A stretch of 64,000 nt of DNA from Anaerolineae bacterium (GCA_013178015.1 JABLXR010000007.1:37682-101681), one strand, 5' to 3'. Shown: positions 6,615-25,389, counted from the first letter of the stretch. The notes: a model not told the origin generated them from the sequence alone. Numbers and translations: made by a program.

Positions 6615-6704
6615 GGTCCCTCCGCTGGTGTGGTGGTGAGGTCAGGCGAACGGACCGCCGGCCTCCTCGGCGGCGCTCCGATATCGGGCCGGGCCGTCTC
6701 AGGG

Positions 6705-7595
6705 CTAGGTCCCGGTGCGCCCAGTGAGGGCGATGCCGCGGACGAAGTAGTTCTGCCCCAGGAAGAAGATGACGATCAGGGGCATGGAGGTGAACACGGT
6801 GGCCGCCATGACCAGCCCCTGGATGGGCTCGCCGACGGTGGCGGACACTGCCTGGCGCAAGAACTGAAGCCCGATGGAGATGGGGAACAGCTCCGACCGA
6901 TGCAGGTAGATGAGGGGCTGTAAGTAGCTGTTCCAGTTGCCGATGAAGGTGAAGATGGCGATGGTGGCCAGCACTGGCTTCATGAGAGGCAGAAGCACCC
7001 GCCACAGGATGGCAAACTTGCCGCACCCGTCCAGCTCTGCCGCCTCGTCCAACTCCCGAGGCAGCGTCAGAAAGAACTGACGAATGAGGAAGATGGAGCT
7101 GGCGGAGCCAAAGAAGGCCGGTACCGTGAGGGGAAGCCAGGTATCGATCCAGTGCAGCTGCCGGAAGATGATGTACGTAGGGATGAGGGTGACCCACCAG
7201 GGCAGCATCATGGTGCTGAGCATGAGGGCGAAGGCCTGGCTTCGTCCCCGGAACTGGAGTCGAGCGAACCCGTAGCCTACCAGGGAACAGCTCAGGAGGG
7301 TGCCTACGATGTTGATGACGGTGATGATAATCGTATTCACGTAAAACCGGGAGAAGGGCACCCTCACCCAGGCATCGGGGTAGTTCTGCCAGCGAATCTC
7401 CGAGGGCAGGATCGCGGGGGGAATGCGGTTGAAGTCCGCGTAGGTCTTGAATGAACCAGAGACGGTCCAGAGCAGCGGGTACATGAACCAGGCGAACCCT
7501 ACGATCAGCCCCGCCCAGGCCAAGATCTGGCGAACCCTTTGCTTGCGTCGCCTGGAGGCGAAGTAGCTGCTTCTAGGTGCGGACACCGCCGTCAT
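6705..7595 (-). CDS. Sugar ABC transporter permease (CUT1, MalG-like)
   Basis: EAA loop ELDEAAELDGCGKFAILWRVLLP and 6 TM segments. The 605-aa track ORF is chimeric; the real start is the ATG at 7593-7595 (MTAVSAPRSSYFASRRRKQRVRQ…). Confidence 0.8.
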   Translation of the reverse strand: MTAVSAPRSSYFASRRRKQRVRQILAWAGLIVGFAWFMYPLLWTVSGSFKTYADFNRIPPAILPSEIRWQNYPDAWVRVPFSRFYVNTIIITVINIVGTLLSCSLVGYGFARLQFRGRSQAFALMLSTMMLPWWVTLIPTYIIFRQLHWIDTWLPLTVPAFFGSASSIFLIRQFFLTLPRELDEAAELDGCGKFAILWRVLLPLMKPVLATIAIFTFIGNWNSYLQPLIYLHRSELFPISIGLQFLRQAVSATVGEPIQGLVMAATVFTSMPLIVIFFLGQNYFVRGIALTGRTGT

Positions 7596-7639
7596 AGGCG
7601 AGCCTCCGGGAATCTGACCTGGGCTGCAGGCACTGCCCT

Positions 7640-8584
7640 CTAGCCTCCTTCGTAGAACACCCAGTACTTGGAAGCGAGGAAGTTCACTCCAGTGAGTGCC
7701 AGCACTATGATGAACGCCACCCAGCCCAGAGCGCTGGCGTAGCCCATCTTGAAGTACTCGAACGCATTGCGGTACAGGTGGAGGCCATAGAACAGGGTGG
7801 CGTGCCTTGGGCCACCGTCGGTCATCAGGTAGGCCGCCTGCCAGCTCTGCAGGACCCCGATGAGGCTCATGACCAGGTTGTAAAACAGCGCCGGCGATAT
7901 CTGGGGCAGAGTCACGTGCCGGAACTTGGCCACCTCGCCTCCGCCGTCTATCTCCACCGCCTCGTAGAGATGCTCGGGTACTCCCTGAAGCGCCGCCAGC
8001 ATGATCAGCATGGCGCTCCCCACGCTGAAGAGCCCCATGAGGGCCAGAGCCGGCAGTGCCCACGTGGTGCTGTTCAGGTAGGACGGCCCTTCTACGCCTA
8101 TCAGGGCCAGCGCCCAGTTGATGGCCCCGTTCTTGGCCAGGAGATAGGTCCACACCAGCATCCAGCCCACGCTGCTGATCATGCCTGGCACGTAGAAAGC
8201 GGTGCGGAAAAACGCTATCCCCCGGATCCTCTGGTTCAGAAGCAGAGCGATGGCCACGCTCTGCACCATGCCGAGAGGTATGGTGATGGCGGCGTAGGTC
8301 CAGGTCACCCGCATGGAGGTCCAGTAGACCCGGTCGCGCAGGAACATGAAGCTGAAGTTCTCCAGCCCGACGAACTTTGGTGGGGACGCCAGGTTGTACT
8401 CGGTGAGGCTGAGGTACATGGAAGCGAGAAATGGGAAGGCGGTGAAGACCAGGAAGCCGATCACCCAGGGCGATATGAAAGCCCATCCGGTCAGGTCGCG
8501 TCTGAGACGGCTCGACGACCATCCCGCCCTTCGGTGCGGTACCGTCGCTTCCCTGATTGGAGCTTCAGCTGCGGACACGTCCAC
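7640..8584 (-). CDS. Sugar ABC transporter permease (CUT1, MalF/UgpA-like)
   Basis: EAA loop LYEAVEIDGGGEVAKFRHVTLP and multiple TM segments. GTG start at 8584. Confidence 0.8.
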   Translation of the reverse strand: MDVSAAEAPIREATVPHRRAGWSSSRLRRDLTGWAFISPWVIGFLVFTAFPFLASMYLSLTEYNLASPPKFVGLENFSFMFLRDRVYWTSMRVTWTYAAITIPLGMVQSVAIALLLNQRIRGIAFFRTAFYVPGMISSVGWMLVWTYLLAKNGAINWALALIGVEGPSYLNSTTWALPALALMGLFSVGSAMLIMLAALQGVPEHLYEAVEIDGGGEVAKFRHVTLPQISPALFYNLVMSLIGVLQSWQAAYLMTDGGPRHATLFYGLHLYRNAFEYFKMGYASALGWVAFIIVLALTGVNFLASKYWVFYEGG

Positions 8585-8674
8585 CCCACCTCCGTCCGCC
8601 CGGCGACAGAGGCCGGGCCCAAGGCCTAGAGGGCGGCCTCTGGCAACTGAAGACCGCCCTCACTGGAGGGATGC

Positions 8675-10054
8675 CTAGGTGTTGTACTGGCGCAGAATCT
8701 CCGTGCCCACCTCGTCGGCTTCCTTCAGGACCGCGACCGGGTCTCCCTCACACGTCAGTATCTGTTCCACGATGGGCCGGATCTCGTTACGCCACTCGTG
8801 CCAGCCCTTCAAGATGGGGTAGAAGTCGCCCTTCTGCGTCTGCTCGATGAGAGCTTCCTTGGCGATGGCCGGCTGGTTGGCGAAGTACTCCGGGCTCTCG
8901 ATGACCGAGTGTCGGCAAGGCTGCGAGGTGCCGTTCAGGCCGATGGCCAGCTGGACCTCGTAGCTGGCCAGGTACTTGCCCAACTCCCAGGCCTCCTTTG
9001 GATACGGCGTCTTGGCCGAGATGCAGTTGGGCTGGTGGTTGTGGTTGCTCATGAAGCTCTTGGTGCGCGGGGCCCGGGCGATGCCCACTCGATGCACATT
9101 GAGTCCTGCCGCCGCCGCGGCCCGCTCTTCCATCCGACGCGGGATGCCCACAATGCCAGCGGCCTCGGGGCTGATGCCCAGGGACTCCCTCATGGCGGAG
9201 TAGTCCTCAAAGGGAATGGCCACCTTGAGGTCGCACATGAGTCTGTTGAGCATGAGCATGGCTTCCAGGGTGGCCTCGTTGCTGGCCAGAGTAGTCTCCA
9301 TGGTGTCCGGATTCCAGTAGCTCCCGCCATTCGAATAGACCCACTGGAACCAGTTGGGGCCGTCCACGTCGTTGCCCAGGGTGCAACCGTAGATGTCCTC
9401 GCCAAGGTTATTGATGGCAACGGCCGCCTCTACCCAGTCATCCCAGTTCCACCACTTGTCGCCGGCGTGGTCGTGCTCCCAGGGCATGGGCAGACCCGCC
9501 TGCTCAAACAAGTCTACGTTGATCTCCTCCCCGTAGAAGAGTCCCTGGAAGGGCAGGGCCAGGATTTGCCCGTTCTCGTAGAAGATGGGGTGCTGCTTGA
9601 TGATGTCCGGCTCGTTGATGTCCGGATCTACCTCGAAGAAGGGCTTGAGGTCCAAAAGCCAGTCTCTGAACTCAGGCGTCTCCACAAACGACCAGAGGAA
9701 GATGTCCGGCGCCGTGCCGGCGGCAAACTCCACCCGCAGACGGTCTCCCACCTCAGGCGCGGGCTCGTAAGCCACTGTGGCCACATCGGCGTACTTCTCG
9801 GCGAACTCGCCCAGGAACTGAGAGGTAAGCTCGCCCCGGTCGCCTCCGTACCAGTCTGTGAGATAGCGGATCCGAGGAACGGCGCCGGGTACTGCGGTCG
9901 GGGCGGCCGCCTCTACCACACGCGTTACCTCCTTCTCCACCACCTTTTCCACCACTTGGGGCGTGGCGGCGGCGCAGGCAGTCAGAGCGGCCCCCCCACT
10001 CGCGACAGCGGCTACACGCAAGAAGCTCCGTCTCGACAGACTCTGCCGTGCCAT
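8675..10054 (-). CDS. Extracellular solute-binding lipoprotein of a sugar ABC transporter (twin-arginine signal)
   Basis: MARQSLSRRSFLRVAAVASGGAALTAC… has a twin-arginine motif and a lipobox. Start at the ATG 10052-10054, preceded by GGAGGTG; the track ORF is extended by 27 codons. Confidence 0.8.
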   Translation of the reverse strand: MARQSLSRRSFLRVAAVASGGAALTACAAATPQVVEKVVEKEVTRVVEAAAPTAVPGAVPRIRYLTDWYGGDRGELTSQFLGEFAEKYADVATVAYEPAPEVGDRLRVEFAAGTAPDIFLWSFVETPEFRDWLLDLKPFFEVDPDINEPDIIKQHPIFYENGQILALPFQGLFYGEEINVDLFEQAGLPMPWEHDHAGDKWWNWDDWVEAAVAINNLGEDIYGCTLGNDVDGPNWFQWVYSNGGSYWNPDTMETTLASNEATLEAMLMLNRLMCDLKVAIPFEDYSAMRESLGISPEAAGIVGIPRRMEERAAAAAGLNVHRVGIARAPRTKSFMSNHNHQPNCISAKTPYPKEAWELGKYLASYEVQLAIGLNGTSQPCRHSVIESPEYFANQPAIAKEALIEQTQKGDFYPILKGWHEWRNEIRPIVEQILTCEGDPVAVLKEADEVGTEILRQYNT

Positions 10055-10234
10055 CTCTCGCACCTCCATCAAGTACTCGCTGCTCGGCCCGAAAGATTCC
10101 CCGTACAGCGGTGGACGGAGACCACACGCCACCACCTGTACCTCAGTATAGAGCCCACCGGTAGTGGTTGCTCGCCAATCTGCTGACAGCTTTGTGACAA
10201 GAGCAGGGCTCTTTCCTCTAGTCTGTTCCCGACC

Positions 10235-11389
10235 TCACCCGAGGTTCACGTATGTGCCAAGAACACCGGTGACCCCATCCTGCCCCTGTCCGTAGTAGCA
10301 GACGAACAGCTTGCCAGGAGCGTACTCGATGCTAGCCGGGTACCCCAGATCGCCGTTGGGCAAGTCATCGCGGACCACAAGCTCGTCCTCCACCCGCCAC
10401 GTGCGGCCACCATCCTCGCTCAGGCACGCTCGGATGCCGAAGGGAGGGGAGCGCCGCCCATAGGTGCAGACGATCCGCCCATCACGGAGCTTTAGCAGAT
10501 GCCCAGGGTGCCCGAACAGGCGCGATCTATCCGGCGCACTCCAGGTTCGGCCGCCATCGTCGGAGCGACAGAAGTGCAGGTAGCCGGTGTTGCGGCTATC
10601 GCGCAAGACGCAAAGCAGCCGACCGGGCGCCACCTCGAGCAGATCGGGCTCCCCGTCTATCAGGCCCTTGGTCTCGCAGATGAGCGTGGGCCGGGACCAA
10701 CTGAGCCCGCCGTCGTGGGAGAAGACGATGAAGTTGTGCTCCAGATACGGATGCTCCTCCAGGGCGTAGGCCAGACGCCCGTCGGACAGCTCCACCACTC
10801 CGGTGCGGGTGTAGCCGTCCCGATAGGGACTGGTGTCCACCCGCACCGTACGCTGGAAGGTGCGGCCTCCATCGCAGCTGAAATGCAGGTAGAGACCGTG
10901 GAACCCCCGGGCCCAGGGGTAGCAGGAGCGCTCCCAGTCCGCGTCCGTGAACTTCTCGGTGAACTGGCGCCGCTCCAAGGCGATGGCGATGCGCTCTCCC
11001 GCCTCTCTGCGACGACGCGCCAACCCAAGGGGGTACCAAGCGAAGCGGAACTGGCTCAACACCACCTCTCCGCTCCTCAGCTGCCGTAGGCCCGGGCACT
11101 CCACCCCGTACCAGTCGAAGCTCGGCACGAACTCAGGCATCCCCCACGACCGCCCCCAGTCGGCGGAGCGGCAGATGGCGTTGCGAAAGAAGGGATCCTC
11201 CGGGGGATGTAGGCGCTCCGGGTGCCGGCGAACGTAGTTGAACGCCACCAGCCATTCGCCACTATCCAGGACCTCGATGGCCGGGTGTGAGGCGTAGATA
11301 TGGTCGTCTCGGAATATCGTGACGGTCTCGCCCACGGAGTAGCATTCCACGCTGCTTCCCCCATCTCCCAGGCTACGCCTCTGCCACAC
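10235..11389 (-). CDS. BNR/Asp-box repeat sialidase-like glycoside hydrolase
   Basis: Four Asp-boxes (SCDGGRTF, SHDGGLSW, SDDGGRTW, SEDGGRTW). GTG start with a GGGAG SD. Confidence 0.7.
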   Translation of the reverse strand: MWQRRSLGDGGSSVECYSVGETVTIFRDDHIYASHPAIEVLDSGEWLVAFNYVRRHPERLHPPEDPFFRNAICRSADWGRSWGMPEFVPSFDWYGVECPGLRQLRSGEVVLSQFRFAWYPLGLARRRREAGERIAIALERRQFTEKFTDADWERSCYPWARGFHGLYLHFSCDGGRTFQRTVRVDTSPYRDGYTRTGVVELSDGRLAYALEEHPYLEHNFIVFSHDGGLSWSRPTLICETKGLIDGEPDLLEVAPGRLLCVLRDSRNTGYLHFCRSDDGGRTWSAPDRSRLFGHPGHLLKLRDGRIVCTYGRRSPPFGIRACLSEDGGRTWRVEDELVVRDDLPNGDLGYPASIEYAPGKLFVCYYGQGQDGVTGVLGTYVNLG

Positions 11390-12791
11390 CTAACTCCCGC
11401 AGCCTCTCCCCATCGCCCAGGTAAGCCTGGTAGCGGTGCACCAGGGTGCGCTGCAGCTCCTTTATGTCAATGTCGCGCGGCGTCACCCCGTCGCGGGCCG
11501 CCATGGCCGCCGCCAAGCCCGCCGCCTGCCCCATCATCAGGCACTTCCACCGGTTCCTCATCGAGGGCGGCTGCAGGATGGCTGAGAGCCCAGCGCACAG
11601 CAGCCCCTCCACCTTCTGAGGCAGGAGCTGCCGGTAGGGGAAGTCCGCCCCGCCCTCCACCCTCGGCTGACGCTGATCGGGGTAGTGCACGAAGATCACG
11701 TCGTCGAACCGACGCCCGACCGCCATGTCCTCCATGGTGGTGGCGTGCTCGGCCACGATCCCCCGCCCGCCGCGGGTGTGGAAGTAGGGCGACACCACCA
11801 GCAGGTACGACTGCTCGAACCCGGGAACGTAGCGCCGCAGGAACTGGGCCGTCTCGAAGATGTACAGGCGCGAGCCCGCCTCCAGCCTGCTCATCATCGC
11901 CTGGTCGCCGCTCCGGATGCCCTTGCCCCGCAGGCCCACCTGGGTGCTCACCAGGCCATCCCGAGGGCCGAAGTACTCATTGGGCGAGTGGGGGATGCCG
12001 TGGTCGAGGCTGACGCTGGCGATGCCGTCTATGTCCTTGATGATCCAGTACTCCCCCAGCTCCCAGGCCCTCTTGTAGAAGGGGATGAGCGGGTTCAGCC
12101 GCGGTACGGGAGAGCCGAAGTGCCGGGTGAAGATCTCCTCGGCCCAGGCGAGGTCCTGTGGATCAATGCGATGCTCGCCTCGCAGCCAGCCCATGAACCT
12201 GCCGGTGTCCACCCCGGCCACCGTGAAGTGCATGCCGGGGTGGACGTAGTTCTCGCCCTCGTCTACCGGCGCTCCGGCCCGCATCGCCACGTCAGCGTCG
12301 GCCGTGGCGTCGATCACCACTCCGGCCAGGATGGCCTGGGAGCCCGACTTGTTCTCTACCATCACGCCCACCACCCGGTTCCCTTCCATGATGGGATCGG
12401 CAACGTAGGTGTTGAGCAACAGCCGGACCCGGTTCTCCTCCATCATCCTGAGCCAAACGTACGAGGCCACCTGCGAGTCCCGCAGGTGCTGGTGTCCCAT
12501 CTGTCCGTCAGCATAGCCCTCGCACCGATTGAGGAACTCGCCCGGGATCCCCTTCAGCCCGCCCATCATTGCCTGGGGATAGCCTAGGGCCAGGTGGACC
12601 ACCCCTCCCGACATCATCCCCGGCCCCACGTTGCCTCCCAGGATGCCGAACCGGTCCACCAGCATGGTCCGGGCCCCGTTGCGCGCGGCAGCCACGGCGG
12701 CGCAGCAGCCGGCGATGCCAGCGCCTGCCACCAGGACGTCCACCTCGGCCACCACCGGTACGCGCTTGGTAACCTCCACAGTACCTTCCAC
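11373..12791 (-). CDS. FAD-dependent oxidoreductase (FAD_oxidored / PF12831-like)
   Basis: N-terminal dinucleotide-binding motif VLVAGAGIAGCCAAVAAARNGARTMLVDR…GGN. GTG start with a GGAGG SD. Confidence 0.75.
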   Translation of the reverse strand: MEGTVEVTKRVPVVAEVDVLVAGAGIAGCCAAVAAARNGARTMLVDRFGILGGNVGPGMMSGGVVHLALGYPQAMMGGLKGIPGEFLNRCEGYADGQMGHQHLRDSQVASYVWLRMMEENRVRLLLNTYVADPIMEGNRVVGVMVENKSGSQAILAGVVIDATADADVAMRAGAPVDEGENYVHPGMHFTVAGVDTGRFMGWLRGEHRIDPQDLAWAEEIFTRHFGSPVPRLNPLIPFYKRAWELGEYWIIKDIDGIASVSLDHGIPHSPNEYFGPRDGLVSTQVGLRGKGIRSGDQAMMSRLEAGSRLYIFETAQFLRRYVPGFEQSYLLVVSPYFHTRGGRGIVAEHATTMEDMAVGRRFDDVIFVHYPDQRQPRVEGGADFPYRQLLPQKVEGLLCAGLSAILQPPSMRNRWKCLMMGQAAGLAAAMAARDGVTPRDIDIKELQRTLVHRYQAYLGDGERLRELGVAEA

Positions 12792-12912
12792 AGTCCACCT
12801 CCGGAACTCGTTACGCGGGCGCTCGCGCCCCTTATGCTGGTCGTCACTCCCACCTGCGCCTCAATGGTAGCGCGCTGGGCTCGCCATGGCTTGACAGTTC
12901 ACTGACAGGCTG

Positions 12913-14145
12913 GTGACAATGAGTCTGGATCCGCCGTCGGTTCTGTGGTGCAGGTGCCCGACCATGGGAGCATCGCTGGGGGTCGAAGAGGTTCACGAGG
13001 CACTCCTGTGCCTCTACAGCCCTACGGAGCTCGCCCGGTGCGCTCTGGCGCAGGAGATTGTTGCCGCGCGCGAAGTTGGTGATGTGGTCCTGCGGGCACA
13101 GGCAGTGCGCGATCTCCTTCTGGACGCGCTCGAGACCTTGCGGCCCACCGGTGGTCCGTCACCCTCCGCATCCGCCTCCCGCGCCTACGACTGCCTGACC
13201 TACAGGTACGTCTCGGGCATGTCAGTAGAGGACGTCGCTTACGAACTGCACCTGAGCCCGCGACAGGTCTACCGGGACCTGCGCTGGGGAGAGGAGAGGC
13301 TGGCCGAGCTGCTCAGCTCCCGGCTCTCCGGCCAGGATGCGCCGGACCCGCGCCCCAGCTCGCCCCTCTCGCAGGAGCTGGAGGCGGCCGCCTCCGGGGC
13401 TCAGGCGATGGACCTGGCGGAGGCGGTGGCCTCTTCCGTGGCTGCCCTGGACGCTCTGGCCGAGCGCCTGGATACCACCCTCGAGTACGAGGGCCCCACC
13501 ACGGGGCTACCGATCAGGGGCACGCCGGGCCTTCTGCGCTCCCTCATCGCCCAGGTGCTCAGCGCGTTACTTCAGACCAGTGGCCCGGTGCATGTGTCGC
13601 TCACTTCCGACCACAAGCTCGCTTGCCTCAGCTTCCGGGTACGTCAGAGGCCTGGCATCCTGCGCCGCGAACTGGCGGGGCCTGCCAGCCAGCTGCTTCA
13701 GGTACAGAGGATAGGCTACCGCCTATCGGCCGAAGGCGAGGATGCCATCCTGCAGATGCACTTCCCCCTCAACCCGGAGAGGGTAGTGCTGGTGGTAGAA
13801 GACAGCCCGGGCGCTTGCGCCCTTTACGGCCGCTACCTCGAAGGCACGGGGTGGAAGCCGGTGCTGGCCGAGAGGCCAGGCCTGGTCACCGGTCTGGCGG
13901 TGGCTCACCGGGCCGCAGCCATCATCCTAGACATCATGATGCCCGAGACCGACGGCTGGAGCGTCCTGCAGGCAGTGCGGCTGAACCCTCTTACGGCGGA
14001 GGTTCCGGTCATCGTATGCTCGGTGCTCAGCGACCCAGAGCTGGCCGCCGCCCTGGGCGCTACCGGCTACCTCACCAAGCCTGTGACCCGTCCTCAACTG
14101 CTAGCCGCTCTGGCGCAGGCAGCTCCGGCAAGTAGGCCGGCTTGA
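12913..14145 (+). CDS. Atypical response regulator: N-terminal sigma70-region-4-like HTH, central degenerate histidine-kinase-like (HATPase N-box-like) segment, C-terminal receiver domain
   Basis: The HTH-like segment is YDCLTYRYVSGMSVEDVAYELHLSPRQVYRDLRWGEERLAEL. The middle segment (GLPIRGTPGLLRSLIAQVLSALLQTSGPVHVSLTSD) resembles the N-box of the adjacent kinase (IDRTRIRQVLLNLLANACRFTEKGEITVAV). The C-terminal receiver has VVEDS…ILDIMMP…LTKP with the acidic pocket, phospho-Asp and Lys conserved. Confidence 0.75.
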   Translation: MTMSLDPPSVLWCRCPTMGASLGVEEVHEALLCLYSPTELARCALAQEIVAAREVGDVVLRAQAVRDLLLDALETLRPTGGPSPSASASRAYDCLTYRYVSGMSVEDVAYELHLSPRQVYRDLRWGEERLAELLSSRLSGQDAPDPRPSSPLSQELEAAASGAQAMDLAEAVASSVAALDALAERLDTTLEYEGPTTGLPIRGTPGLLRSLIAQVLSALLQTSGPVHVSLTSDHKLACLSFRVRQRPGILRRELAGPASQLLQVQRIGYRLSAEGEDAILQMHFPLNPERVVLVVEDSPGACALYGRYLEGTGWKPVLAERPGLVTGLAVAHRAAAIILDIMMPETDGWSVLQAVRLNPLTAEVPVIVCSVLSDPELAAALGATGYLTKPVTRPQLLAALAQAAPASRPA

Positions 14146-16255
14146 GTTGCGTCAAGCAGGCACGGATCAGGGTGAGGGTGTCGTCTTCCGACAGGCCCGC
14201 CGCCGAGGTAACGGAGAAGCTGCGCGCTTGACGTCCGGAGCCCTCCATGCCCGGCTGTATCGCCGTCACGGCCACAATGGCCGGGCTCCGCTCGCCCATC
14301 TCCTGCCTGATGATGCGGGCCACCGAGTGGCCGCCCAGGTCGGGCAAGGCAATGTCCAGAAGGACTACGTCAACCGGTTCGCCTCTGACCTTCTCCAGCG
14401 CCTCCTGCCCGCCGTGGGCCCAGATCACCCGGTAGGGCGCTCGCTGCACCTCCAGCAGCCTTCTCACCAGACGGACGAAGGACGGGTCGTCATCCACAAT
14501 GAGTAGCGTGCCTGCCCTGGCCACTCGCTCCAGAGCCCCCGCCAGCCTGTCGTCACCGATGGGCTTCACTAACCAGTCGTCGAACAGCTCGCCCTCCACG
14601 TAGTTGTGGCTCACGGGCAAGGAGCACTGCACTACCGGCACCGGTTCGCTCACGAAGGGCGGAGGTGCGCCGTGGGGCGCGTCCGCCGGCTCCGGTGGCA
14701 CGTTGACGATCACGGCGTCGGGATGCTCTTGCCGGACTAGCTTCCTGGCCTCCAGCAGGTCAGTAGCACCCACGATCCGGTAGCCCTCGAGATGGCGCGA
14801 CAGGAAGGCGCGCCCCTCGGGTTCGTCCACCAGCACGACCGTGGGCACGCGCTCGTCCCTCGGCAGCCCGTCAGCCCCCGCTTCCGGAAGCCGGACCACC
14901 TGCTTCTCCTCCAGCGGCAGAGTAAAGAAGAAAGTGCTCCCCTCCCCCAGCGCGCTCTCCACCCATACGCGCCCGCCGTGCATCTGCACAAACCGCTTGG
15001 CTATGGCCAGGCCCAAGCCCTTGCCCAGGCGGCGGAGCCCGTCCTCATCGCCCGTATCCGCCTGCTCGAACTCCTCGAAGATGCGCTCCGACTCCTCCGG
15101 CGGGATCCCGGGCCCAGTATCGGCGACGGACACCACTACCTCGTCCGCCTGAACCATGACCGCCACCGTTATCTCCCCCTTTTCGGTGAAGCGGCAGGCG
15201 TTCGCCAGGAGGTTGAGTAGCACCTGGCGGATACGCGTCCTGTCAATGAAAAGCTCAGGCAGATCGGACGGGACGTGCCGCACAAGGCGAACCTCTCCCC
15301 TGTCGGCCAGCAATCGGGAGGCCACCTCGATAGCCTCCTCGACGATCACCCGCAGATCCACGTGCTCGCGCCGGACAGGCATCTTGAGAGCCTGCAGCCG
15401 GGCCAGGTCCAGCACGTCGTCAATCAGCTCCGACAGGTAGCGGGCGCTGCGCTGGATCTCGATGACGTCCCTCCTGAGGGCGGGGGTCCATACGGCGCCG
15501 GCATAGACCTCCGGATAGCGCTGCATCACCTCCACGAAGCCCAATATTATGTTGAGTGGAGTGCGCAGCTCGTGACTGACCGTGGTGGCGAACTGCTCCT
15601 TGAGCTGCCGGGCCTCCTGGGCCTCGCGCTGTGCCTGCCCTAGCTCGTTGAGGCTGCGCTTCAGCAGCCCATTGGAGACCCGCAGCGCCTTGTTCAGCCG
15701 GTTGACCTCCTCCTGACGCAGCCGCACCTCCCGCGCCAGAACGTTCAGTTGCTCCGTCTGGCCCCAGGCCTCGAACAGAAGCGACCTGCCGGTAGAGGCC
15801 TGGAGAAGCCCCACCATCCCCACCGAGGCCAGCAACAGCGTTGAGCTCTCCCGACCGACCGGCACCAGGCTCCCGCTCAGAATTAGGGGCAGGAGCGACA
15901 TCCCCACCGCCGCGGGCACAGCGAGCCAGGCCGGCAGCAGGAATAGGCTCAGCAAGAGCGGCAACGCCAGAAAGGGAAGTGCCTCTCCATACCCGAGGGG
16001 TCCCTGGCATACCAGGACCACCGCCAGGAGCAGTCCCACCTGAGCCAGGGCTCCGACGGTGGCCGGTGGGCGCGAGTACAGGGCAATCAACGGCAGAGCT
16101 ATACCGACCGTAAGGAGCAGGCCCACCAGGGCTAGATCCAGCTCCCGGTCACCCAGCTCCACGAACAGCCGCAACCAGCCCAACCCGGCGAGCGACAGCC
16201 CGAGCTTGAGGGCGAGACCCCGACGGCTCTCGTCCCAACGATCCTGCCCCGTCAT
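14072..16255 (-). CDS. Hybrid sensor histidine kinase (multi-TM sensor, HisKA, HATPase_c, pseudo-receiver, receiver)
   Basis: H-box FATTVSHELRTPLNIILGF. ATP-binding N/G boxes (LLNLLANACRFT, DTGPGIP, GKGLGLAI). First receiver-like domain has Asn at the phospho-Asp position (AVIVNVP); second receiver is canonical (LIVDDDP…VVLLDIALP). ATG at 16255 with a GGGGAGGAG SD. Its 3' end overlaps the regulator's 3' end by 74 nt. Confidence 0.85.
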   Translation of the reverse strand: MTGQDRWDESRRGLALKLGLSLAGLGWLRLFVELGDRELDLALVGLLLTVGIALPLIALYSRPPATVGALAQVGLLLAVVLVCQGPLGYGEALPFLALPLLLSLFLLPAWLAVPAAVGMSLLPLILSGSLVPVGRESSTLLLASVGMVGLLQASTGRSLLFEAWGQTEQLNVLAREVRLRQEEVNRLNKALRVSNGLLKRSLNELGQAQREAQEARQLKEQFATTVSHELRTPLNIILGFVEVMQRYPEVYAGAVWTPALRRDVIEIQRSARYLSELIDDVLDLARLQALKMPVRREHVDLRVIVEEAIEVASRLLADRGEVRLVRHVPSDLPELFIDRTRIRQVLLNLLANACRFTEKGEITVAVMVQADEVVVSVADTGPGIPPEESERIFEEFEQADTGDEDGLRRLGKGLGLAIAKRFVQMHGGRVWVESALGEGSTFFFTLPLEEKQVVRLPEAGADGLPRDERVPTVVLVDEPEGRAFLSRHLEGYRIVGATDLLEARKLVRQEHPDAVIVNVPPEPADAPHGAPPPFVSEPVPVVQCSLPVSHNYVEGELFDDWLVKPIGDDRLAGALERVARAGTLLIVDDDPSFVRLVRRLLEVQRAPYRVIWAHGGQEALEKVRGEPVDVVLLDIALPDLGGHSVARIIRQEMGERSPAIVAVTAIQPGMEGSGRQARSFSVTSAAGLSEDDTLTLIRACLTQLKPAYLPELPAPERLAVEDGSQAW

Positions 16256-16304
16256 CGCTCTCCTCCCCTGGCCTCACCCCCGCCACCGGCCCTGCTACCC
16301 TCCG

Positions 16305-17342
16305 TCAGGCGTACGCCATGGGTAGCGGAAGCGAGATGGCGCTGCCGGTGGCGGACGACTGCAGCCCCGCTTCCAGTATCTCCTGCGCGTCCCGACCGAC
16401 CTCGGCGCTGCAGAGGCCGACGATGGGCTCTCCTCGCGCCAGACGACTCAGGAAGTAGGCCGTCGCGCTGGCTTCATCCTCCGGCAGCGGAGGTACTTTC
16501 ACCTCCACTCCCTCGTCGTGCTCTTGGTCCGCCAAAAGGACGCGGCCCTGCTTTCCGGGCTCCACTACCAGAGTGCCCTCGGTGCCGTAGATGACAGTCA
16601 CGTAGGAGGTCAGGTGGCCGATCTGGCTCCAAGAGGCCTCCGCCAGCGCCATGGCCTTCGGCCACTCCATGACGATGACGGCGTTGTCGTCCACCAGTAC
16701 GTAGTCTTTGACCAGCCTGCCCACGATCCCCGTCACCCGGCTGGGCTGTCCCAGGAGGTAGCGAGCCAGGGCGGAGCCGTAGGAGCAGTAGTCCATGAGA
16801 GCTCCTGCCCCGTTCCGGGCGGGATCATACAGCCAGTCGCAGAAATAGGGCGAGCACCCGAGCTCCTTGGGGCCAGCGTGGGCGGCCCGGTAGCGGGTGC
16901 AGAACGGTCGTCCGATTCGCCCGGACTGAGCCAGGCTCAGCGCATGCTGGAGCGCTGGCCACCAGGCGAAGGGCCAGTTCACCATCAGTTGGGTGCCGGC
17001 CCTGCGGCAGGCGGCTATCATGCGGTCGGCACCCAGCAGGTCGGCAGCCATGGGCTTCTCCACCAGCGCGTGGAGCCCTCGATCAGCCGCCATCTCCACC
17101 AGCTCCACCGAGCCGGCATTGTCGGCGTAGACGTAGACGGCGTCCAGCTCGCTCTCCTCGAGCATCGCCTCGTACGAGTCGAAAGTGCCCACGCCATGCT
17201 CGCTGCGGACCCGGTCCAGCAGGGGTTGGTTGGGGTCAGCCACTGCCACCAGTTCCCCCAGGTCCGAGGACTGCAGATCGGCCAGATTGCCCCACACGTG
17301 ATCGTGGGTCAGTCCCAACACGCCTACTCGAAGCTTACCCAT
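16305..17342 (-). CDS. Gfo/Idh/MocA-family oxidoreductase
   Basis: MGKLRVGVLGLTHDHVWGNL…EKP Rossmann motif. ATG with a GGGGAGG SD. Confidence 0.85.
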   Translation of the reverse strand: MGKLRVGVLGLTHDHVWGNLADLQSSDLGELVAVADPNQPLLDRVRSEHGVGTFDSYEAMLEESELDAVYVYADNAGSVELVEMAADRGLHALVEKPMAADLLGADRMIAACRRAGTQLMVNWPFAWWPALQHALSLAQSGRIGRPFCTRYRAAHAGPKELGCSPYFCDWLYDPARNGAGALMDYCSYGSALARYLLGQPSRVTGIVGRLVKDYVLVDDNAVIVMEWPKAMALAEASWSQIGHLTSYVTVIYGTEGTLVVEPGKQGRVLLADQEHDEGVEVKVPPLPEDEASATAYFLSRLARGEPIVGLCSAEVGRDAQEILEAGLQSSATGSAISLPLPMAYA

Positions 17343-17346
17343 CGTG

Positions 17347-18195
17347 CTAGCCTCCCCGTCCCATGGGGTACTGCTCTCCGAAGAAGGGAAAGAGCTCCCC
17401 TAGCGTCTCCTCGGTCACCTGACCGCCGTACTCCCCGAACTCGAACGACTCGGCGTACCGGACTCGAGCGCCCGCCTCGTCTCCATACAGGCGCTTCAGC
17501 AGGTCGCGACAGCGGTCGGCCTCCCGGGCCATCATGCCCAGACGTTGGGCCGCCATCCACTGGCGTCTTGCCTCCCGGCCTTCCGGCATCTGCTCCAGAG
17601 CGCCGTGATTGTAGGGCAGCCATTCGTAGAACTGGGACACGTGGCTGTCCAACATGTCTATCTTGTTCTCCACCACGTCATCAATGCTCACAGCCACGTC
17701 GGGCGTGTGGGGATAGGGTCGGGTGAAGCTGTCGCTCCAGTAAGCGATGACCGGGTTATACCGCAGATGAGGCGTAAGGGCCTGAACGTTAGGGATGGTC
17801 ACCGTGTAAGCAGCATCCTGCACCAGTTGGGAGGTGTAGCGGTGGTCGGGGTGGTAGTCGTTGGGCCGGTTGGTCACCACGAGATCGGGCCGGAACTCCC
17901 GGATCACGTTCACCACTACCCAACGGTTCTCCAGGGACGGGATCAGCTCGGCATCGTGGAGATCGAGCAACTGGTACTCGATGCCCGCGATCTGGGCCAC
18001 CCGCTGGGCCTCCTGATAGCGGCGTCGGGCCAGCGGCCCTCCTCCCTCCCGGTAGTGACCCCCGTCGCCGTTGGTCAGGGAGACGAACTTCACCTGGTGC
18101 CCCAACCGCACATACTTGGTGGCACAACCGCCGAACCGATAGTCGCAGTCGTCGGGATGGGCCCCGATGGCGAGCACCCGCAGGGTGTTCGGCAT
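17347..18195 (-). CDS. PIG-L/LmbE-family N-acetyl-glucosaminyl deacetylase
   Basis: MPNTLRVLAIGAHPDDCDYRFGG…HPDH motifs typical of the LmbE family. Start at the ATG 18193-18195 with a GGAGG SD. The 30-aa track extension is a translation of the heptad repeat and is rejected. Confidence 0.8.
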   Translation of the reverse strand: MPNTLRVLAIGAHPDDCDYRFGGCATKYVRLGHQVKFVSLTNGDGGHYREGGGPLARRRYQEAQRVAQIAGIEYQLLDLHDAELIPSLENRWVVVNVIREFRPDLVVTNRPNDYHPDHRYTSQLVQDAAYTVTIPNVQALTPHLRYNPVIAYWSDSFTRPYPHTPDVAVSIDDVVENKIDMLDSHVSQFYEWLPYNHGALEQMPEGREARRQWMAAQRLGMMAREADRCRDLLKRLYGDEAGARVRYAESFEFGEYGGQVTEETLGELFPFFGEQYPMGRGG

Positions 18196-18213
18196 GATTG
18201 CCTCCATGTTGCT

Positions 18214-19137
<924 letters not shown>

Positions 19138-19449
19138 TGCATCCCTCTCGTGCCTCAGAGTTGGCCCCGTTCGGCCCCTGTGGGTCGAGCTTAGCGCACT
19201 TGGGCCGCGACGCCCAACGCCTCAGGCCGCCCTCTGCGTTCAGTAGCCTGGCCCCGAGCGGTCCGACGCAGAAGCGAAAGCCGGGCGGGAGTCGTGCCGA
19301 CCCCGACCCGGCATGGGGGAAGAGACGCCGCGATGCGTCGTCTGCGATGCGTTGGCTAGGCCTTGCTCCTGTCAATGCAGTGGGACAGTAAAGCTGCCCT
19401 CTTCAGGCTGCGGGCGCCCCAAGTGAACTTCCTGCCCAGGGGCGCAACG

Positions 19450-20550
19450 TCAGGAGAGCTTCATCTCCCTTATCAGCTCCACGTAGCGCATGAAGGAGCG
19501 AAACGAGATGTCGGGCAGGATCATGTCGTCCACCGCTGGAATGTAGCCCCCCTGCTCCATCAGCCAGGGGACCTTCCCCATCACCTCCCGCTCCACCGCC
19601 TCGGGCCCGTCCATCAGCGCCTGGCGCGAGATGTTGCCATACAAGAGCACGTCGCGCCCGTACTCCCGCCGCAGCTTCGCCGCGTCCATCCCCGCCGCTA
19701 CCTCCAAGGGCCCGAACAGGTTGAAGCCCGTCTCCAACAGCACCGGGATCAGGGGCTCGATGTTGCCGCTGGTGTAGAACGAAAACACCTCCACCCCCTT
19801 GCCCCGCAGGTGCTCGATCACCCTCCCCACGTAGGGCTTCCAGAAGCGCCGGTACGTCTCCGGCCCGATCAGGCTGGAGGTCTTGTACGCCAACCCATCC
19901 TCGTTGAGCACCACGTAGTCTACCGGCACCCTCTCTACCACCGGCCCCCACAACGCTATGGTGAACTCGGCCCAAAAGTCGAAGATGTCGTGCACGAAGG
20001 CGGGTTCATCGTGAAGGGCGGCCAGGAACCTCTCCAACCCCAGCATGTAGCCGTTCTTGGGCCCCCGCCCCGGCCCCCACATCATGCTCAGCCCCACCGC
20101 ACTCCCGCCAGTGCGATAGGCCTCGAATAGCTCCGGCCCCCAACTCAGGGGCAGCCGCCTTACGTCGGCGGGGTCGTAGCGACGCTTCATCGCCTCCCAG
20201 TCTTCCCGCGTCTCCACCGACCCTTTGAGATACACATACACCGTGGGGGCCACCGTCTGAGCCTTGAGCCGGCGGACGGTGAAGCCAAACTCGTCCCTGT
20301 ACGTCGTCCACTCCTCGTCCGACGACAAGGTGCGCTGAACGAAGGCGGGGATGGGACCGGTGTGGATGGGAACGAAGGTGTTGCCGTCGAAGCCCACGTA
20401 CTCCCGGATGTCCCGGCCCCAGGGGAACCCCTCCGTGCACCAGCGCCGGACGGCCTGCTCAGTGATGCCCTCCAGGTCCCAAAGGGGAACCCGATCGGGC
20501 ATCTGGAACCGGGTGATGGCGCGGAAGCGCTCTCGTGAGGTCATGCTCAT
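19450..20550 (-). CDS. Uroporphyrinogen decarboxylase (URO-D) family protein, non-haem paralog in a sugar locus
   Basis: MSMTSRERFRAITRFQMPDRVPLWDL… is a URO-D/MtaA-like N-terminus. The start is chosen at the ATG 20548-20550 (GGGAGG upstream); the track ORF begins 9 codons earlier and lacks an SD. Confidence 0.7.
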   Translation of the reverse strand: MSMTSRERFRAITRFQMPDRVPLWDLEGITEQAVRRWCTEGFPWGRDIREYVGFDGNTFVPIHTGPIPAFVQRTLSSDEEWTTYRDEFGFTVRRLKAQTVAPTVYVYLKGSVETREDWEAMKRRYDPADVRRLPLSWGPELFEAYRTGGSAVGLSMMWGPGRGPKNGYMLGLERFLAALHDEPAFVHDIFDFWAEFTIALWGPVVERVPVDYVVLNEDGLAYKTSSLIGPETYRRFWKPYVGRVIEHLRGKGVEVFSFYTSGNIEPLIPVLLETGFNLFGPLEVAAGMDAAKLRREYGRDVLLYGNISRQALMDGPEAVEREVMGKVPWLMEQGGYIPAVDDMILPDISFRSFMRYVELIREMKLS

Positions 20551-20664
20551 TGGCTTGTCAGCCTCCCAAGGCGTCATTCACCGCGGGCGGGTACCGCTGC
20601 CTGGGATCGGTAGGGCAGGGCACCGCACCTGCGTGGTGCAAAGGGCGGACGCAGTGGTCCTCCC

Positions 20665-21795
20665 CTACCCCGCCAGACTGAGGTACCGGGCCAGGAAATC
20701 GAGGCTTTCGACTCCCCGCGCCACGTGGCCCCCGTCGTGCTCGAGATAGGCGATCCTATCCTCGATGCCCAGCCGGCGGTAGTGCTCGCGGGCATCCTCG
20801 TAAGCGGCGCGCGAGGCCTCGTACCACACCGCTCCGTCCTGCCGGCCGGTCTCGGCGGCGAAGGCGCGGGGGCAGATCAGGCTCACCACGTCGGAGTCAT
20901 CGAAGTACTTGAGCCAGCCGGCGAAGAACTTGTCTTCCTCGAAGGTCTTGACGTACGGGGTGCGAGGGTAGTCATAGTCAATCATCTTGCCGATGCGCCG
21001 CTGAAAGAAGGCCGAGGACACGCTCGCCTTGATGCGGGTGTCTACCGCGGGGAAGAAGAGAGCGCTTTGGCCACCCTGGCTCAACCCGTAGAACCCGATC
21101 CGATTGGGATCTACTTCGGGAAGGGTGGACACGTAGTCCAGCAGCCGGGAGGTGCACATGAACTCGGTGCCGATGAGGCGCTCGCCAATGAGGTAGGCCT
21201 TGCGGTAGAGCTGGGTACGGGCCCGGGCCCATTCCTGATCGCCCAGGGCAGGCACGTACCGGGCTCCTCCCTCGTCGGTGCCGAAGCCCCCAACCATATG
21301 CGGCGCCAGCACGACGAAGCCCCGCTCCGCCAGGCGGATGCCCATGCGGTGGTAGCTGTAGTCCGGCCTGATGGCATCCACCACGAAGCCGCAGGCCTCT
21401 TCTGGGGTGCCGCACAAGCCGTGCTGCGCCACCACCAGAGGGCGCGGGCCGGAGCCGTGAGGGATAAGGAACAGCGCATCCTCCCACACCTCCGGCAAGA
21501 CCTGCAGCCAGAGCCGTTTCAGGGAGAAGCGCTCGGTCTGGCCCAGGTCTTCCCACCGGGGTTGGGGGTCGCAATCGGGCTGGCCACCGTAGCCGATCAT
21601 GGCGGCGAAGCGGGCCCGCATGGGCTCCATAGAGCGCTCGTATTCGGGGATGCTGCCGTAGTGCCGGTCCCAGCGTTCCACCCGGGTGTCGAAGGCCTGG
21701 TGGCAGCGCCGGGTGAAGTAGGCGTCGAACCCCTCGTAGAGGGCCCGGCGCCGTTGGTCTATGTCGGCGTAGTCAATGATGGGATCGTCGGTCAT
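20665..21795 (-). CDS. Alpha/beta-hydrolase, acetyl-esterase-like (G-x-S-Q-G nucleophile elbow)
   Basis: GFYGLSQGGQ motif, as in CE7-type acetyl esterases and dienelactone hydrolase-like folds. An alternative start at 21867 is possible; the ATG at 21795 has a GGAG SD. Confidence 0.6.
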   Translation of the reverse strand: MTDDPIIDYADIDQRRRALYEGFDAYFTRRCHQAFDTRVERWDRHYGSIPEYERSMEPMRARFAAMIGYGGQPDCDPQPRWEDLGQTERFSLKRLWLQVLPEVWEDALFLIPHGSGPRPLVVAQHGLCGTPEEACGFVVDAIRPDYSYHRMGIRLAERGFVVLAPHMVGGFGTDEGGARYVPALGDQEWARARTQLYRKAYLIGERLIGTEFMCTSRLLDYVSTLPEVDPNRIGFYGLSQGGQSALFFPAVDTRIKASVSSAFFQRRIGKMIDYDYPRTPYVKTFEEDKFFAGWLKYFDDSDVVSLICPRAFAAETGRQDGAVWYEASRAAYEDAREHYRRLGIEDRIAYLEHDGGHVARGVESLDFLARYLSLAG

Positions 21796-21870
21796 GGGAA
21801 CTCCGTGGCGATCTAGAGCTGCTGCCCACCACCCCGGCTCAACAGGGGCGAAGCTGGCTTCGGGCAAAGG

Positions 21871-22935
21871 CTACTGGTATGAACCGTACTTCCTGACACA
21901 CTCCATCAGCCAGGTGTAGGCGGCGAAGCTTACCCCCGGAGGCACCGAGTGGTCTATGTGGTAGAGGTAGCCTCCCCCCTTCTTAGCATAGCCTACCTTG
22001 CTGCGGACCTCTTCCTCAATCGCGTCTCTGTCCCCTTGCGCCACTACGTCGGCGCTGATGTTCCCGAAGAAGGCGATCTCGTGTCCGTATCGCCTCCTGT
22101 ACTCCCGGACGTCGTTGCCCGCCCGAGCCTCCAGCGGCTGAACACAGTCCACACCAGCCTCGATCAGCAACGGTATCAGCTCCGAGACATCGCCGTCGCA
22201 GTGGTAGATCACCTTGAGGCCCAGCGCGTGGCAGCGATCACAGATCCGACAAAGACGCGGCAACACGTGCCTCCGGTAGACTCGGGGCGAGAAGAGCATC
22301 CCATTGCGGTAGCACAGGTCACTGAAGAACCAAAGCGCATCAACTGCGATTTCCTGCCTGGTGACCTCGTCCAGCATCCCCAGCACGAACTGCGTCACCG
22401 TCTCCAGCACGTCGTCGAGAAAGCCCGGCTGCTCCAGCATGGCTGGCAGAGCGGTCTCCGCGCCCAGGGTGCGGATGAAGAACCAGGCCGGCTCAACCGG
22501 TGAGATCACCACATACTCGCCTCGCGCCTGGGCTGCCGCCGCCGCCTCCCGCGCCCCTGGTGACAACCGGTCCGGTCCTGGTTGCAGGCGGTGCCGGACC
22601 TTCCGCCACTGGTCGAAGGTTGCGATGCGCCACCCGATCTCCGAGGGCGGGGCGTAGGAGTCCTTCCAAGTCTTCATGAGGACGCCGTCGGCGTTCCACT
22701 CCAGCCGGTAGGCCTCGCCTTCTTCCTGAATGGCGGTGGGAAGCTGCAGAGTAGAGTCAATGCCCACCGTGTGGATCCGGTCCAGGCCGAAGTAGTCCCG
22801 CGGGTCGGTTCCCACAGGGAGTCCCTCCTGCTCCCAGCGACGGATGGTGTCCGGCCAGTAAGAGATGTCCACCATGGGCACGCAATCACCCTCTTGATGA
22901 CTCAAGGCTGTGATGATGCGCTCTCGGCCAGTCAT
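21871..22935 (-). CDS. Uroporphyrinogen decarboxylase (URO-D) family protein, second paralog
   Basis: MTGRERIITALSHQEGDCVPMVDISYW… N-terminus typical of the URO-D family. Paralogous to 19450..20550. Confidence 0.75.
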   Translation of the reverse strand: MTGRERIITALSHQEGDCVPMVDISYWPDTIRRWEQEGLPVGTDPRDYFGLDRIHTVGIDSTLQLPTAIQEEGEAYRLEWNADGVLMKTWKDSYAPPSEIGWRIATFDQWRKVRHRLQPGPDRLSPGAREAAAAAQARGEYVVISPVEPAWFFIRTLGAETALPAMLEQPGFLDDVLETVTQFVLGMLDEVTRQEIAVDALWFFSDLCYRNGMLFSPRVYRRHVLPRLCRICDRCHALGLKVIYHCDGDVSELIPLLIEAGVDCVQPLEARAGNDVREYRRRYGHEIAFFGNISADVVAQGDRDAIEEEVRSKVGYAKKGGGYLYHIDHSVPPGVSFAAYTWLMECVRKYGSYQ

Positions 22936-23028
22936 GATCCTGATCCCACAGGTCTTGGAGTGCAGAAACTGGGGGCAGACAGCCTGCTGCCTGCCCCCTG
23001 CGTCAGAGGGTGCCTTAAGACGACGCAG

Positions 23029-24405: not shown

Positions 24406-24486
24406 CTCTCTGCCTCCTCTAGTCACGCGACGGTTATCCGCTTTGAGCCCCGCGGCCCGGTGCACAGCCGGTGGCGCAAGGCTTGC

Positions 24487-25389
24487 CTAACCCTTGATGC
24501 CCGTCATCACCAGCCCCTCGATGAAGTAACGCTGGAACAGGAAGAAGATGATGAGCGGTGCCACCGCCACCATCAGGGTGGCAGCCATGAGGTAGTTCCA
24601 CTCGGTGGTATACGGTCCCTTGAACCGGTAGAGACCGAGGGCCAGGGTGAAGTTCTTCTGAGAGTGCAAGTAGATCAAGGGGCCAAAGAAGTCGTTCCAG
24701 TGGCCGATGAACAGGAAGATGGCCACTGCCCCCAGCGCCGGCCGGGCTAGAGGCATCAGGATGTTCCAGTAGATGCGGAAGTTGCTGCAGCCATCTATTC
24801 GAGCCGCATCATCCAAGTCGTAGGGTATGGTCATTAGGTACTGCCGGAGCAGGAAGATGTAGAAGGCGCCTCCGCCCAGGAACGAAGGGACAATCAATGG
24901 CTTCAGGGTGTTGATCCATCCCAGGTGCCTGAAGATTATGTAGACTGGGATCATAGTGACATACCCGGGCAGCATCATGGTCGCCAGCACGATCATGAAC
25001 CAGATATCTCGGCCCTTGAACCTCAGGCGGGCGAAGGCGTAAGCCGCCATTGACGAAGACAGCATCGCACCGATGATGGTAGTCGTTGTGATCAGAAGCG
25101 AGTTCTTCAGCAGGACCGGGAAGTGCATTTGCTCGAACGCGGTAGCGTAGTTGTGCCACTGAGGCTCTGAAGGGAACCACTTGGGCGGATAGGCGAAGAC
25201 CTCTCCTCCGGTCTTTAGCGACGACATCGCCATCCAGAAGAGGGGCAGCAGGTAGAAGAACCCACCTGCGCTCAGAGTAGCCACCACTGCCAGCCGCTGC
25301 AATCGCCGGGCGGTTCTCATGCCTACTCCAGCTGCACTACGGCCCTCGATTCCCGCCGGTCTCGCTGACGCCCGGGATGCTGAGGTCAC
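24487..25389 (-). CDS. Sugar ABC transporter permease (MalG-like)
   Basis: EAA loop DLDDAARIDGCSNFRIYWNILMP. GTG start directly after the upstream stop (translational coupling) with AGGAGGGG upstream; an alternative ATG lies at 25320. Confidence 0.8.
   Translation of the reverse strand: MTSASRASARPAGIEGRSAAGVGMRTARRLQRLAVVATLSAGGFFYLLPLFWMAMSSLKTGGEVFAYPPKWFPSEPQWHNYATAFEQMHFPVLLKNSLLITTTTIIGAMLSSSMAAYAFARLRFKGRDIWFMIVLATMMLPGYVTMIPVYIIFRHLGWINTLKPLIVPSFLGGGAFYIFLLRQYLMTIPYDLDDAARIDGCSNFRIYWNILMPLARPALGAVAIFLFIGHWNDFFGPLIYLHSQKNFTLALGLYRFKGPYTTEWNYLMAATLMVAVAPLIIFFLFQRYFIEGLVMTGIKG

Follow-up and report, generated by a model that had tools for sequence, protein, structure and literature searches.

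A response regulator of Anaerolineae with a dead kinase domain between a sigma-4-type helix-turn-helix and its receiver, and a candidate sugar-locus module

What is a segment of histidine kinase doing in the middle of a transcription factor? The question is raised by a two-gene cassette in a 64,000-nucleotide stretch of an Anaerolineae bacterium genome (GCA_013178015.1, JABLXR010000007.1:37682-101681; the whole stretch is referred to as the window, and positions are counted from its first letter). An open reading frame (ORF) at 12913..14145 on the plus strand encodes a regulator, and converges with the ORF of a hybrid histidine kinase at 14072..16255 on the minus strand; the 3' ends overlap by 74 nucleotides (nt). 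An original prediction, made from sequence alone, had proposed that the regulator reads a helix-turn-helix (HTH) first and a receiver last, with a degenerate kinase core between them, and that the pair forms a multi-step phosphorelay controlling both flanking sugar operons. Both ORFs were found where it placed them, and both contain the peptides that it quoted. The true start of the regulator is probably ATG 12964 rather than GTG 12913, because a 100%-identical database protein of 393 amino acids (P0001) and all homologs begin at the same Met. The GTG falls within a direct-repeat array upstream. Residue numbers for the regulator refer to the 393-residue form (Table 1).

On the evidence of profile comparisons, the middle segment is a dead catalytic and ATP-binding (CA) domain. 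A profile of this segment matches the CA domains of ZraS (E = 1.1e-8), RetS (1.7e-7), HK853 and ShkA, and when it was compared, profile to profile, with the CA domains from 11 partner kinases, the probability was 98.2% and the E value 4.7e-14. Homology to the CA fold, which had been proposed from a local resemblance, is therefore established, and the H-box is indeed lacking. The domain is nearly invisible to Pfam, as HATPase_c detects it in only 1 of 66 family members, and a full-length family profile searched against the PDB is dominated by receiver matches.

We describe this CA domain as dead because the N-box Asn, the G1, F and G2 boxes and the ATP lid are lost, and because the regulator has neither a dimerization and histidine phosphotransfer (DHp) domain nor a conserved His. 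The kinase N-box residues N348 and N352 align with regulator Q197 and A201 (family consensus QLLSAxVQS). The G1 (DxGxG), F and G2 (GxGxG) boxes and the ATP lid are replaced by a gap of about 23 residues without Gly motifs, where the structure model has a single 8-residue helix. No HisKA or DHp match to Pfam was identified in the regulator family, and a 10-residue helix precedes the CA fold instead of the DHp hairpin. No conserved His was identified in the 66-sequence alignment. An active kinase in the middle of the regulator was considered and rejected, given the loss of the ATP-binding motifs.

The sigma70 region-4-like HTH proposed for the N-terminus falls below the Pfam cut-off in this protein and is solid at the level of the family. 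In the cassette-1 regulator, Sigma70_r4_2 scores 17.8 bits (E = 0.0026) against a cut-off of 25.7. Across the 66 family members Pfam detects Sigma70_r4_2 in 49 (best E = 4.6e-8), Sigma70_ECF in 52 and Sigma70_r4 in 33, and the regulator of a second, paralogous cassette in the window clears the gathering scores of all three sigma region-4 models. A family profile of residues 1-124 searched against the PDB matches domain 4 of SigF (E = 3.3e-4), another sigma factor (0.0034) and an extracytoplasmic function (ECF) sigma factor (0.054); alignments to solved domain-4 structures span both regions 4.1 and 4.2. The N-terminal profile searched against proteins returned just 10 short, unannotated matches, and Pfam GerE has no match in the regulator family. 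With family profiles supporting both the kinase-like fold and the HTH, this is not the receiver-only protein with a novel N-terminal domain that the original prediction had named as its fallback.

Within the HTH, R73 and R104 are invariant, and R100, Q101 and R104 of the recognition helix are invariant or nearly so across the 66 sequences. The modelled helices span residues 41-58, 69-83, 88-95 and 99-121. In front of the HTH is a helical cap (residues 1-40) for which no Pfam or PDB sequence match was identified. Its columns A13, L14, L17, L23 and L28 are conserved, and it is modelled as short helices with a predicted local distance difference test (pLDDT) score above 90. The possibility that the regulator is itself a sigma factor was rejected, as region 2 is missing: no Sigma70_r2 match was identified among the 66 members, and merely about 40 residues precede region 4.

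The receiver stands last in the regulator, as proposed, with a Pfam Response_reg match (E = 3.6e-14) above the gathering score at residues 275-390. Its phospho-acceptor pocket is intact, and D280, D323, S353, K372 and P373 are invariant in the 66 sequences. All of the parts of the system are of known kinds (a receiver, a sigma-4 HTH, a pseudo-CA domain and a ShkA-like hybrid kinase), and it is the combination of HTH, dead CA domain and receiver that is new. No description of this architecture was found in the literature searched, in which coverage of subscription journals is thin, making this weak evidence of novelty.

The architecture is conserved. An exhaustive profile search, for which 150 representatives of 50%-identity clusters were listed, identified more than 135 full-length proteins (380-440 amino acids) that match in a single stretch with E values of 2e-98 or lower among the matches listed, so the figure is a lower bound. 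Named members are all from metagenome-assembled genomes of Chloroflexota, mostly Anaerolineae with some Caldilineaceae and Chloroflexia; this range reflects a limited sample, in which 8 of 80 related-locus matches, retrieved with a receiver motif as the search pattern, were family members. Source annotations call these proteins just "response regulator" or "CheY-like".

Conserved gene order supports a functional pair of regulator and kinase, as the original prediction held. A gene for a convergent hybrid kinase of about 700-790 amino acids comes directly after the regulator gene in nearly all of some 19 loci, and this persists at regulator identities as low as 28%. These loci are the two cassettes of the window (W1 and W2) together with L001, L003-L009 (L007 twice), L011 and L084-L090. 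Only L010 departs from this layout: both of its genes are on one strand, with the kinase at a contig end. Chance convergence of the two genes was rejected.

A 3' overlap of the convergent genes (4-92 nt) also occurs in nearly every locus. Examples are 14072-14145 and 27739-27809 in the window, 9151-9242 in L003, 1533-1603 in L084, 7952-7995 in L086 and 7127-7200 in L087. Such an overlap could let transcription of one gene interfere with the other, or couple the two by antisense; the protein sequences encoded in it are poorly conserved. L007, with two pairs within 8 kb, and L088 are further contigs that have two regulator/kinase pairs or two ATP-binding cassette (ABC) operons flanking one pair. 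Such arrangements suggest large paralogous expansions per genome.

Genes for sugar uptake through ABC transporters adjoin most loci, which bears out the link to sugar utilisation. Substrate-binding protein (SBP) and/or permease genes lie divergently upstream in nine loci (L001, L003, L085-L090 and cassette 2), and an SBP match was identified upstream of the regulator in L002, L008 and L009. Glycoside hydrolases, sulfatases or oxidoreductases often accompany the pair and its operon of one SBP and two permeases. L087 contains an ortholog of cassette 1 with the same FAD-oxidoreductase, SBP and permease neighbours. In the window, the divergent run of putative targets spans 6705..12791 on the minus strand, and the SBP gene is third in it. 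Genes for sigma or anti-sigma factors are not a recurrent feature around the pair in the loci compared.

The partner kinase has an intact core. The N-box residues N348 and N352, the G1 box (DTGPG at 379) and the G2 box (GKGLGL at 411) of its HATPase_c domain are invariant in the ortholog alignment. In the N-terminal membrane block (residues 1-160) no extracytoplasmic sensor domain and no Pfam or NCBIfam match were identified. Behind the CA domain lies a receiver fold that Pfam does not detect. A profile of 11 orthologs gives full-length matches to PDB receivers (PrrA, E = 1.1e-8) and places Asn518 opposite the phospho-Asp, in agreement with the Asn that had been noticed at this position. Asn occupies the site in 8 of the 11 orthologs, the acidic pair is degenerate, and the beta5 Lys-Pro (K564-P565) is invariant.

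The second receiver of the kinase had been called canonical, which is true of part of it. D588/D589, D634 and T664 are retained, but no receiver profile matches the alpha4-beta5-alpha5 portion, and Ser684 stands in place of the beta5 Lys. The Pfam match covers profile positions 2-78 of 111, and PDB matches end near domain residue 85. We did not identify a histidine phosphotransfer (HPt) domain in the regulator, the kinase or conserved neighbourhoods, nor a conserved His outside the kinase HisKA, nor a recurrent small gene beside the pair. A multi-step phosphorelay requires an HPt step, and this part of the original prediction is therefore unsupported.

Between the regulator and the divergent operon, most loci have three, sometimes four (range 2-4), direct repeats of a unit of about 7 nt with an 11-nt period. 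Shared k-mer counts across upstream regions gave nothing above shuffles, as the repeat unit differs from locus to locus; the arrays emerged from a search for phased repeats within each region. A triple repeat with 11,11 spacing is the top-scoring phased repeat in 9 of 15 upstream regions, always within 44 nt of the start codon, and the per-locus shuffle p value for phased repeats is 0.00-0.04 in most. Extra arrays occur in L087, L088 and L090. The arrays lie at 7928-7956 (L001), 7929-7957 (L003), 5955-5983 (L085), 6702-6730 (L086), 6803-6831 (L008), 6955-6983 (L009), 630-658 (L010) and 508-536 (L011), and from 5940 in L087.

The cassette-1 array (candidate operator 1) reads TTGTCAC-N5-CTGTCAG-N4-CTGTCAA on the minus strand. 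The units in the ortholog L087 (TTGACAA, CTGACAG and ATGACAA) are nearly the same, and the sequence surrounding them is different. Candidate operator 2 lies in the gap before the SBP gene, and its 14 specified bases all agree with those of units 2-3 of operator 1 (12902-12919); even with two mismatches allowed, these two sites have no further match in the 64 kb. Relaxed scans of six other loci yielded no convincing further operator copies. A scan for sigma-70 promoters returned TTGACA-N18-GACAAT, which is the operator 1 array itself. Across loci the repeat unit tracks the recognition helix: RQ[AV][YH]R occurs with TG[ACG]CA, RQ[LFM][QR]R or RHLRR with GGACA or AGACA, and SQFFR with CTCCCA or GGTCC. 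The arrays are probably the operators of the regulator.

The position of the repeats relative to putative promoters is regular. At both sites in the window a -10-like hexamer occurs on the minus strand exactly 32 nt past the CTGTCAG unit, and the offset of TACCAT from the nearest unit is matched in L087 (22 nt). In 9 of 13 promoter regions TAnnnT is found on the divergent strand 32-34 nt past the nearest unit, and the remaining four offsets (22, 22, 42 and 13 nt) are roughly helical steps. Several of these divergent-strand hexamers have a TGn extension and a TTGAAG-like -35. An array at about -45 to -72 on one helix face would be placed as it is for activators that bind direct repeats, PhoB and OmpR among them. 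As with such activators and the pho box, the arrays consist of 7-nt direct repeats with an 11-nt period that abut or replace the -35. The cassette-1 unit on the target strand, CTGTCA, resembles a pho-box unit, which we take to be a likeness of working mode and not of membership. Unlike PhoB and OmpR, the regulator has a sigma-4 HTH rather than a winged helix, a reversed domain order and an extra domain. Of the proposed control over both flanking operons, predicted operators and promoter geometry speak for the divergent genes on the left, but nothing comparable was identified for the right-hand run that ends in the kinase.

We consider it likely that the cassette is a lineage-specific two-component module in which His228 of the kinase phosphorylates Asp323 of the regulator, and the regulator assembles head-to-tail on phased repeats and activates the divergent sugar-uptake and catabolic genes. 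The kinase may be switched on by a signal connected with the adjacent sugar ABC transporter, as its sensor is made of transmembrane segments only. The phosphoryl group would pass from His228 to Asp323, most simply directly from the DHp domain. In that case the kinase's Asp634 receiver could be an internal sink, gate or shuttle, and the Asn518 pseudo-receiver could have a regulatory role or bind a ligand, as in ShkA. The phospho-regulator would bind two to four direct repeats head-to-tail, one helical turn apart, just upstream of the -35 (12891-12919, and 10183-10200 for the SBP gene), and binding there would activate rather than repress the sugar genes. Autoregulation is probable, because the array covers the regulator's own promoter or 5' leader. 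The dead CA domain, presumably unable to bind ATP, most likely serves as a protein-protein module, for oligomerization on the repeats and/or for docking to the partner kinase.

Several observations weigh against this proposal. The array-to-(-10) spacing rule, as read from the sequence, does not fit cassette 2, and no clear array was identified in L004, L005 and L089. An AT-rich -10-like element can be read on either strand in several loci, and the repeats could then be part of a regulator leader and mainly repressing. The AlphaFold2 model of the full-length regulator has a predicted template modelling score (pTM) of 0.62, which leaves the relative arrangement of its domains undefined. Finally, degenerate alpha4-beta5-alpha5 faces have been described for intermediary receivers of hybrid kinases (PMC9981736), and the resemblance of the terminal kinase receiver to these would argue for a relay through an HPt protein encoded elsewhere, and not for direct transfer.

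That last point bears on the model of the original prediction, a multi-step phosphorelay from His228 to Asp634, an HPt protein and Asp323, with the dead CA domain and the Asn518 pseudo-receiver as mutual docking surfaces. The CA-then-receiver order of the regulator mimics a hybrid kinase, and the kinase shares the cytoplasmic order of Caulobacter ShkA (DHp, CA, pseudo-receiver, receiver), with an unphosphorylatable receiver between the CA domain and the terminal receiver. ShkA is soluble and has no input domain; its Rec1 keeps the Asp, loses the acidic pair and binds cyclic di-GMP, its linker carries a DDR motif, and it feeds a relay through the HPt protein ShpA (PMC6969517). The kinase here, by contrast, has 5-6 transmembrane segments, an Asn at the Asp site and a very short linker between pseudo-receiver and receiver (...ERVARAGT...) without the DDR motif, and no HPt domain or conserved His for the relay was identified in either protein or in any conserved neighbourhood. 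We regard the relay as unlikely. Also unlikely, and slightly more so, is a regulator that acts mainly as an autorepressor or roadblock on repeats downstream of its own promoter, with a merely positional link to the sugar operon. The array does keep a near-constant distance of 0-44 nt from the regulator start, compared to 100-290 nt from the divergent start codon, and units 1 and 3 of W1 and L087 resemble the promoter returned by the sigma-70 scan. However, the operator recurs as an exact copy in front of the SBP gene, well away from the regulator gene and with the same 32-nt spacing to a -10-like hexamer, and it is on the divergent strand that such hexamers are the better matches, several with the TGn extension.

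A further alternative is partner switching of the PhyR type, in which the sigma-4-like domain would be a sigma mimic that receiver phosphorylation frees to titrate an anti-sigma-type partner. PhyR has a sigma-2-like and a sigma-4-like part, binds the anti-sigma factor NepR and not DNA, and contains no kinase-like domain. The regulator resembles it in having a sigma-derived output domain first and a receiver last, and the sigma-4 homology is real. Yet it has region 4 alone with no sigma-2-like part, contains an inserted dead CA domain, and has no recurring NepR, ECF sigma or other sigma/anti-sigma genes nearby in the loci compared. Both the (near) invariance of R100, Q101 and R104 and the co-variation of helix variants with the adjacent direct repeats point to DNA binding, and we regard partner switching as highly improbable.

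A bolder version of the direct-transfer module can be imagined, although we think it doubtful: the regulator may be the detached half of a hybrid kinase, fused to a sigma-4 DNA reader. The dead CA domain would dock on the partner DHp as a mimic of the kinase's own CA domain, placing Asp323 beside His228 without an HPt protein, and would drive head-to-tail assembly on the 11-nt-phased repeats. If so, CA docking would give each paralogous sugar-locus pair a second, private recognition surface, and the family would be a new class of response regulator in which pathway specificity is set by a pseudo-kinase domain rather than by the receiver alone.

Degenerate CA domains are known from DivL, RetS, ChpT and Spo0B. 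These differ from the regulator in that they retain the DHp hairpin for dimerization, and none is known to be joined to a DNA-binding domain and a terminal receiver. The NarL/FixJ regulators (LuxR/GerE type) have an HTH distantly akin to sigma region 4 and DNA binding controlled by a receiver; they differ in placing the receiver before the HTH, lacking a kinase-like domain and typically binding inverted repeats as dimers. Many paralogous pairs, each controlling an adjacent carbohydrate locus, are known among the hybrid two-component systems of Bacteroides polysaccharide utilization loci, and the YesM/YesN and XylFII-LytS-YesN systems of Firmicutes. The present loci recall such systems, as the 64-kb window and L007 have two cassettes each, with glycoside hydrolases and ABC importers alongside. 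Those have AraC-type outputs and unrelated sensor domains, and the analogy is one of role only.

No bacterial transcription factors are better catalogued than response regulators, yet this multi-copy family has gone by no more than a generic name. Its middle domain, which Pfam misses, is a clean natural case of a transcription factor that has taken in a pseudo-kinase domain, in an order of domains opposite to the usual one. Members are tied one-to-one to loci for carbohydrate ABC import and glycoside hydrolases in Anaerolineae, a group of degraders that are abundant in sludge, sediments and soils but poorly cultured. The operators predicted here offer a direct route to mapping the sugar loci under each pair, and also a tractable system for the study of insulation among dozens of paralogous kinase-regulator pairs.

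Table 1. Features of the two cassettes and of the putative target genes in the window. Positions count from the first letter of the window; residue ranges refer to the protein concerned.
Feature	Position	Strand	Details
Regulator gene	12964..14145	+	393 amino acids; longest ORF from GTG 12913 is 410 amino acids
Regulator, N-terminal helical cap (residues 1-40)	12964..13083	+	family motif VxEALxxLYxPxxLxxxxLA
Regulator, sigma-70 region-4-type HTH (residues ~41-121)	13084..13326	+	recognition helix S98-P-R-Q-V-Y-R104
Regulator, degenerate HATPase_c-fold CA domain (residues ~134-272)	13363..13779	+	N-box Asn replaced by Q197, A201
Regulator, canonical receiver (residues 275-390)	13786..14133	+	E279/D280, phospho-acceptor D323, S353, K372-P373
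Hybrid histidine kinase gene	14072..16255	-	727 amino acids; convergent with regulator
Kinase, membrane block (residues 1-160)	15776..16255	-	hydropathy scan; ~5-6 hydrophobic segments, very short loops
Kinase, HisKA (DHp) (residues 219-289)	15389..15601	-	phospho-His H228; Pfam E = 2.2e-16
Kinase, intact HATPase_c (residues 338-449)	14909..15244	-	Pfam E = 6.1e-30
Kinase, pseudo-receiver (residues 470-579)	14519..14848	-	Asn518 at phospho-Asp site
Kinase, C-terminal receiver (residues 583-700)	14156..14509	-	Pfam receiver match 585-665
Candidate operator 1	12891-12919		TTGACAG-N4-CTGACAG-N5-GTGACAA; three direct repeats, 11-12-nt period; 44 nt upstream of regulator ATG
-10-like hexamer TACCAT, putative FAD-oxidoreductase/BNR promoter	12864..12869	-	21 nt past nearest unit, 32 past middle unit
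Candidate operator 2	10183-10200		CTGACAG-N4-GTGACAA; gap upstream of SBP gene
-10-like hexamer TATACT, putative SBP-permease promoter	10145..10150	-	32 nt past operator pair
FAD_oxidored gene, putative target	11373-12791	-	Pfam; divergent
BNR_2 sialidase-like gene, putative target	10235-11389	-	Pfam; divergent
SBP_bac_1 gene, putative target	8675-10135	-	Pfam; divergent
Two BPD_transp_1 permease genes, putative targets	7640-8584, 6705-8522	-	Pfam; divergent
Cassette 2, paralogous regulator	26637-27809	+	36% identity to cassette-1 regulator; convergent with kinase
Cassette 2, paralogous hybrid kinase	27739-30000	-	43% identity to cassette-1 kinase
Cassette 2, candidate array	26525->26498	-	TTGGCAG-N4-ATGGCAG-N4-ATGACA
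Cassette 2, weaker candidate array	26607-26635	+	TTGGCAG-N4-CTGGGAG-...

The second cassette, within 26454-30000, repeats the layout of the first. Its regulator and kinase genes overlap by 71 nt at their 3' ends, and it is divergent from an operon of ABC permease and SBP genes at 23029-26337. The run of minus-strand genes at 14072-26337 is unbroken and ends with kinase 1; it starts at the promoter region shared with regulator 2 and includes two permeases, an SBP, two URO-D-like proteins, an esterase, a TIM barrel, PIG-L and GFO/IDH/MocA. Only 49 nt separates kinase 1 from the preceding gene, and it may be co-transcribed and cross-wired with the operon adjacent to cassette 2.

Two 7-nt tandem repeats were also identified in this run, CGTGATA (6.7 copies, 18215-18261) and ACGTATC (7.6 copies, 18277-18329). 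They are mutual reverse complements 15 nt apart, and could form a long hairpin between the PIG-L-family gene and a xylose-isomerase-like TIM-barrel gene. It is these tandem repeats (18215-18329) that account for the strange 'ITHHVSR' peptide repeats among the mechanically listed ORFs.

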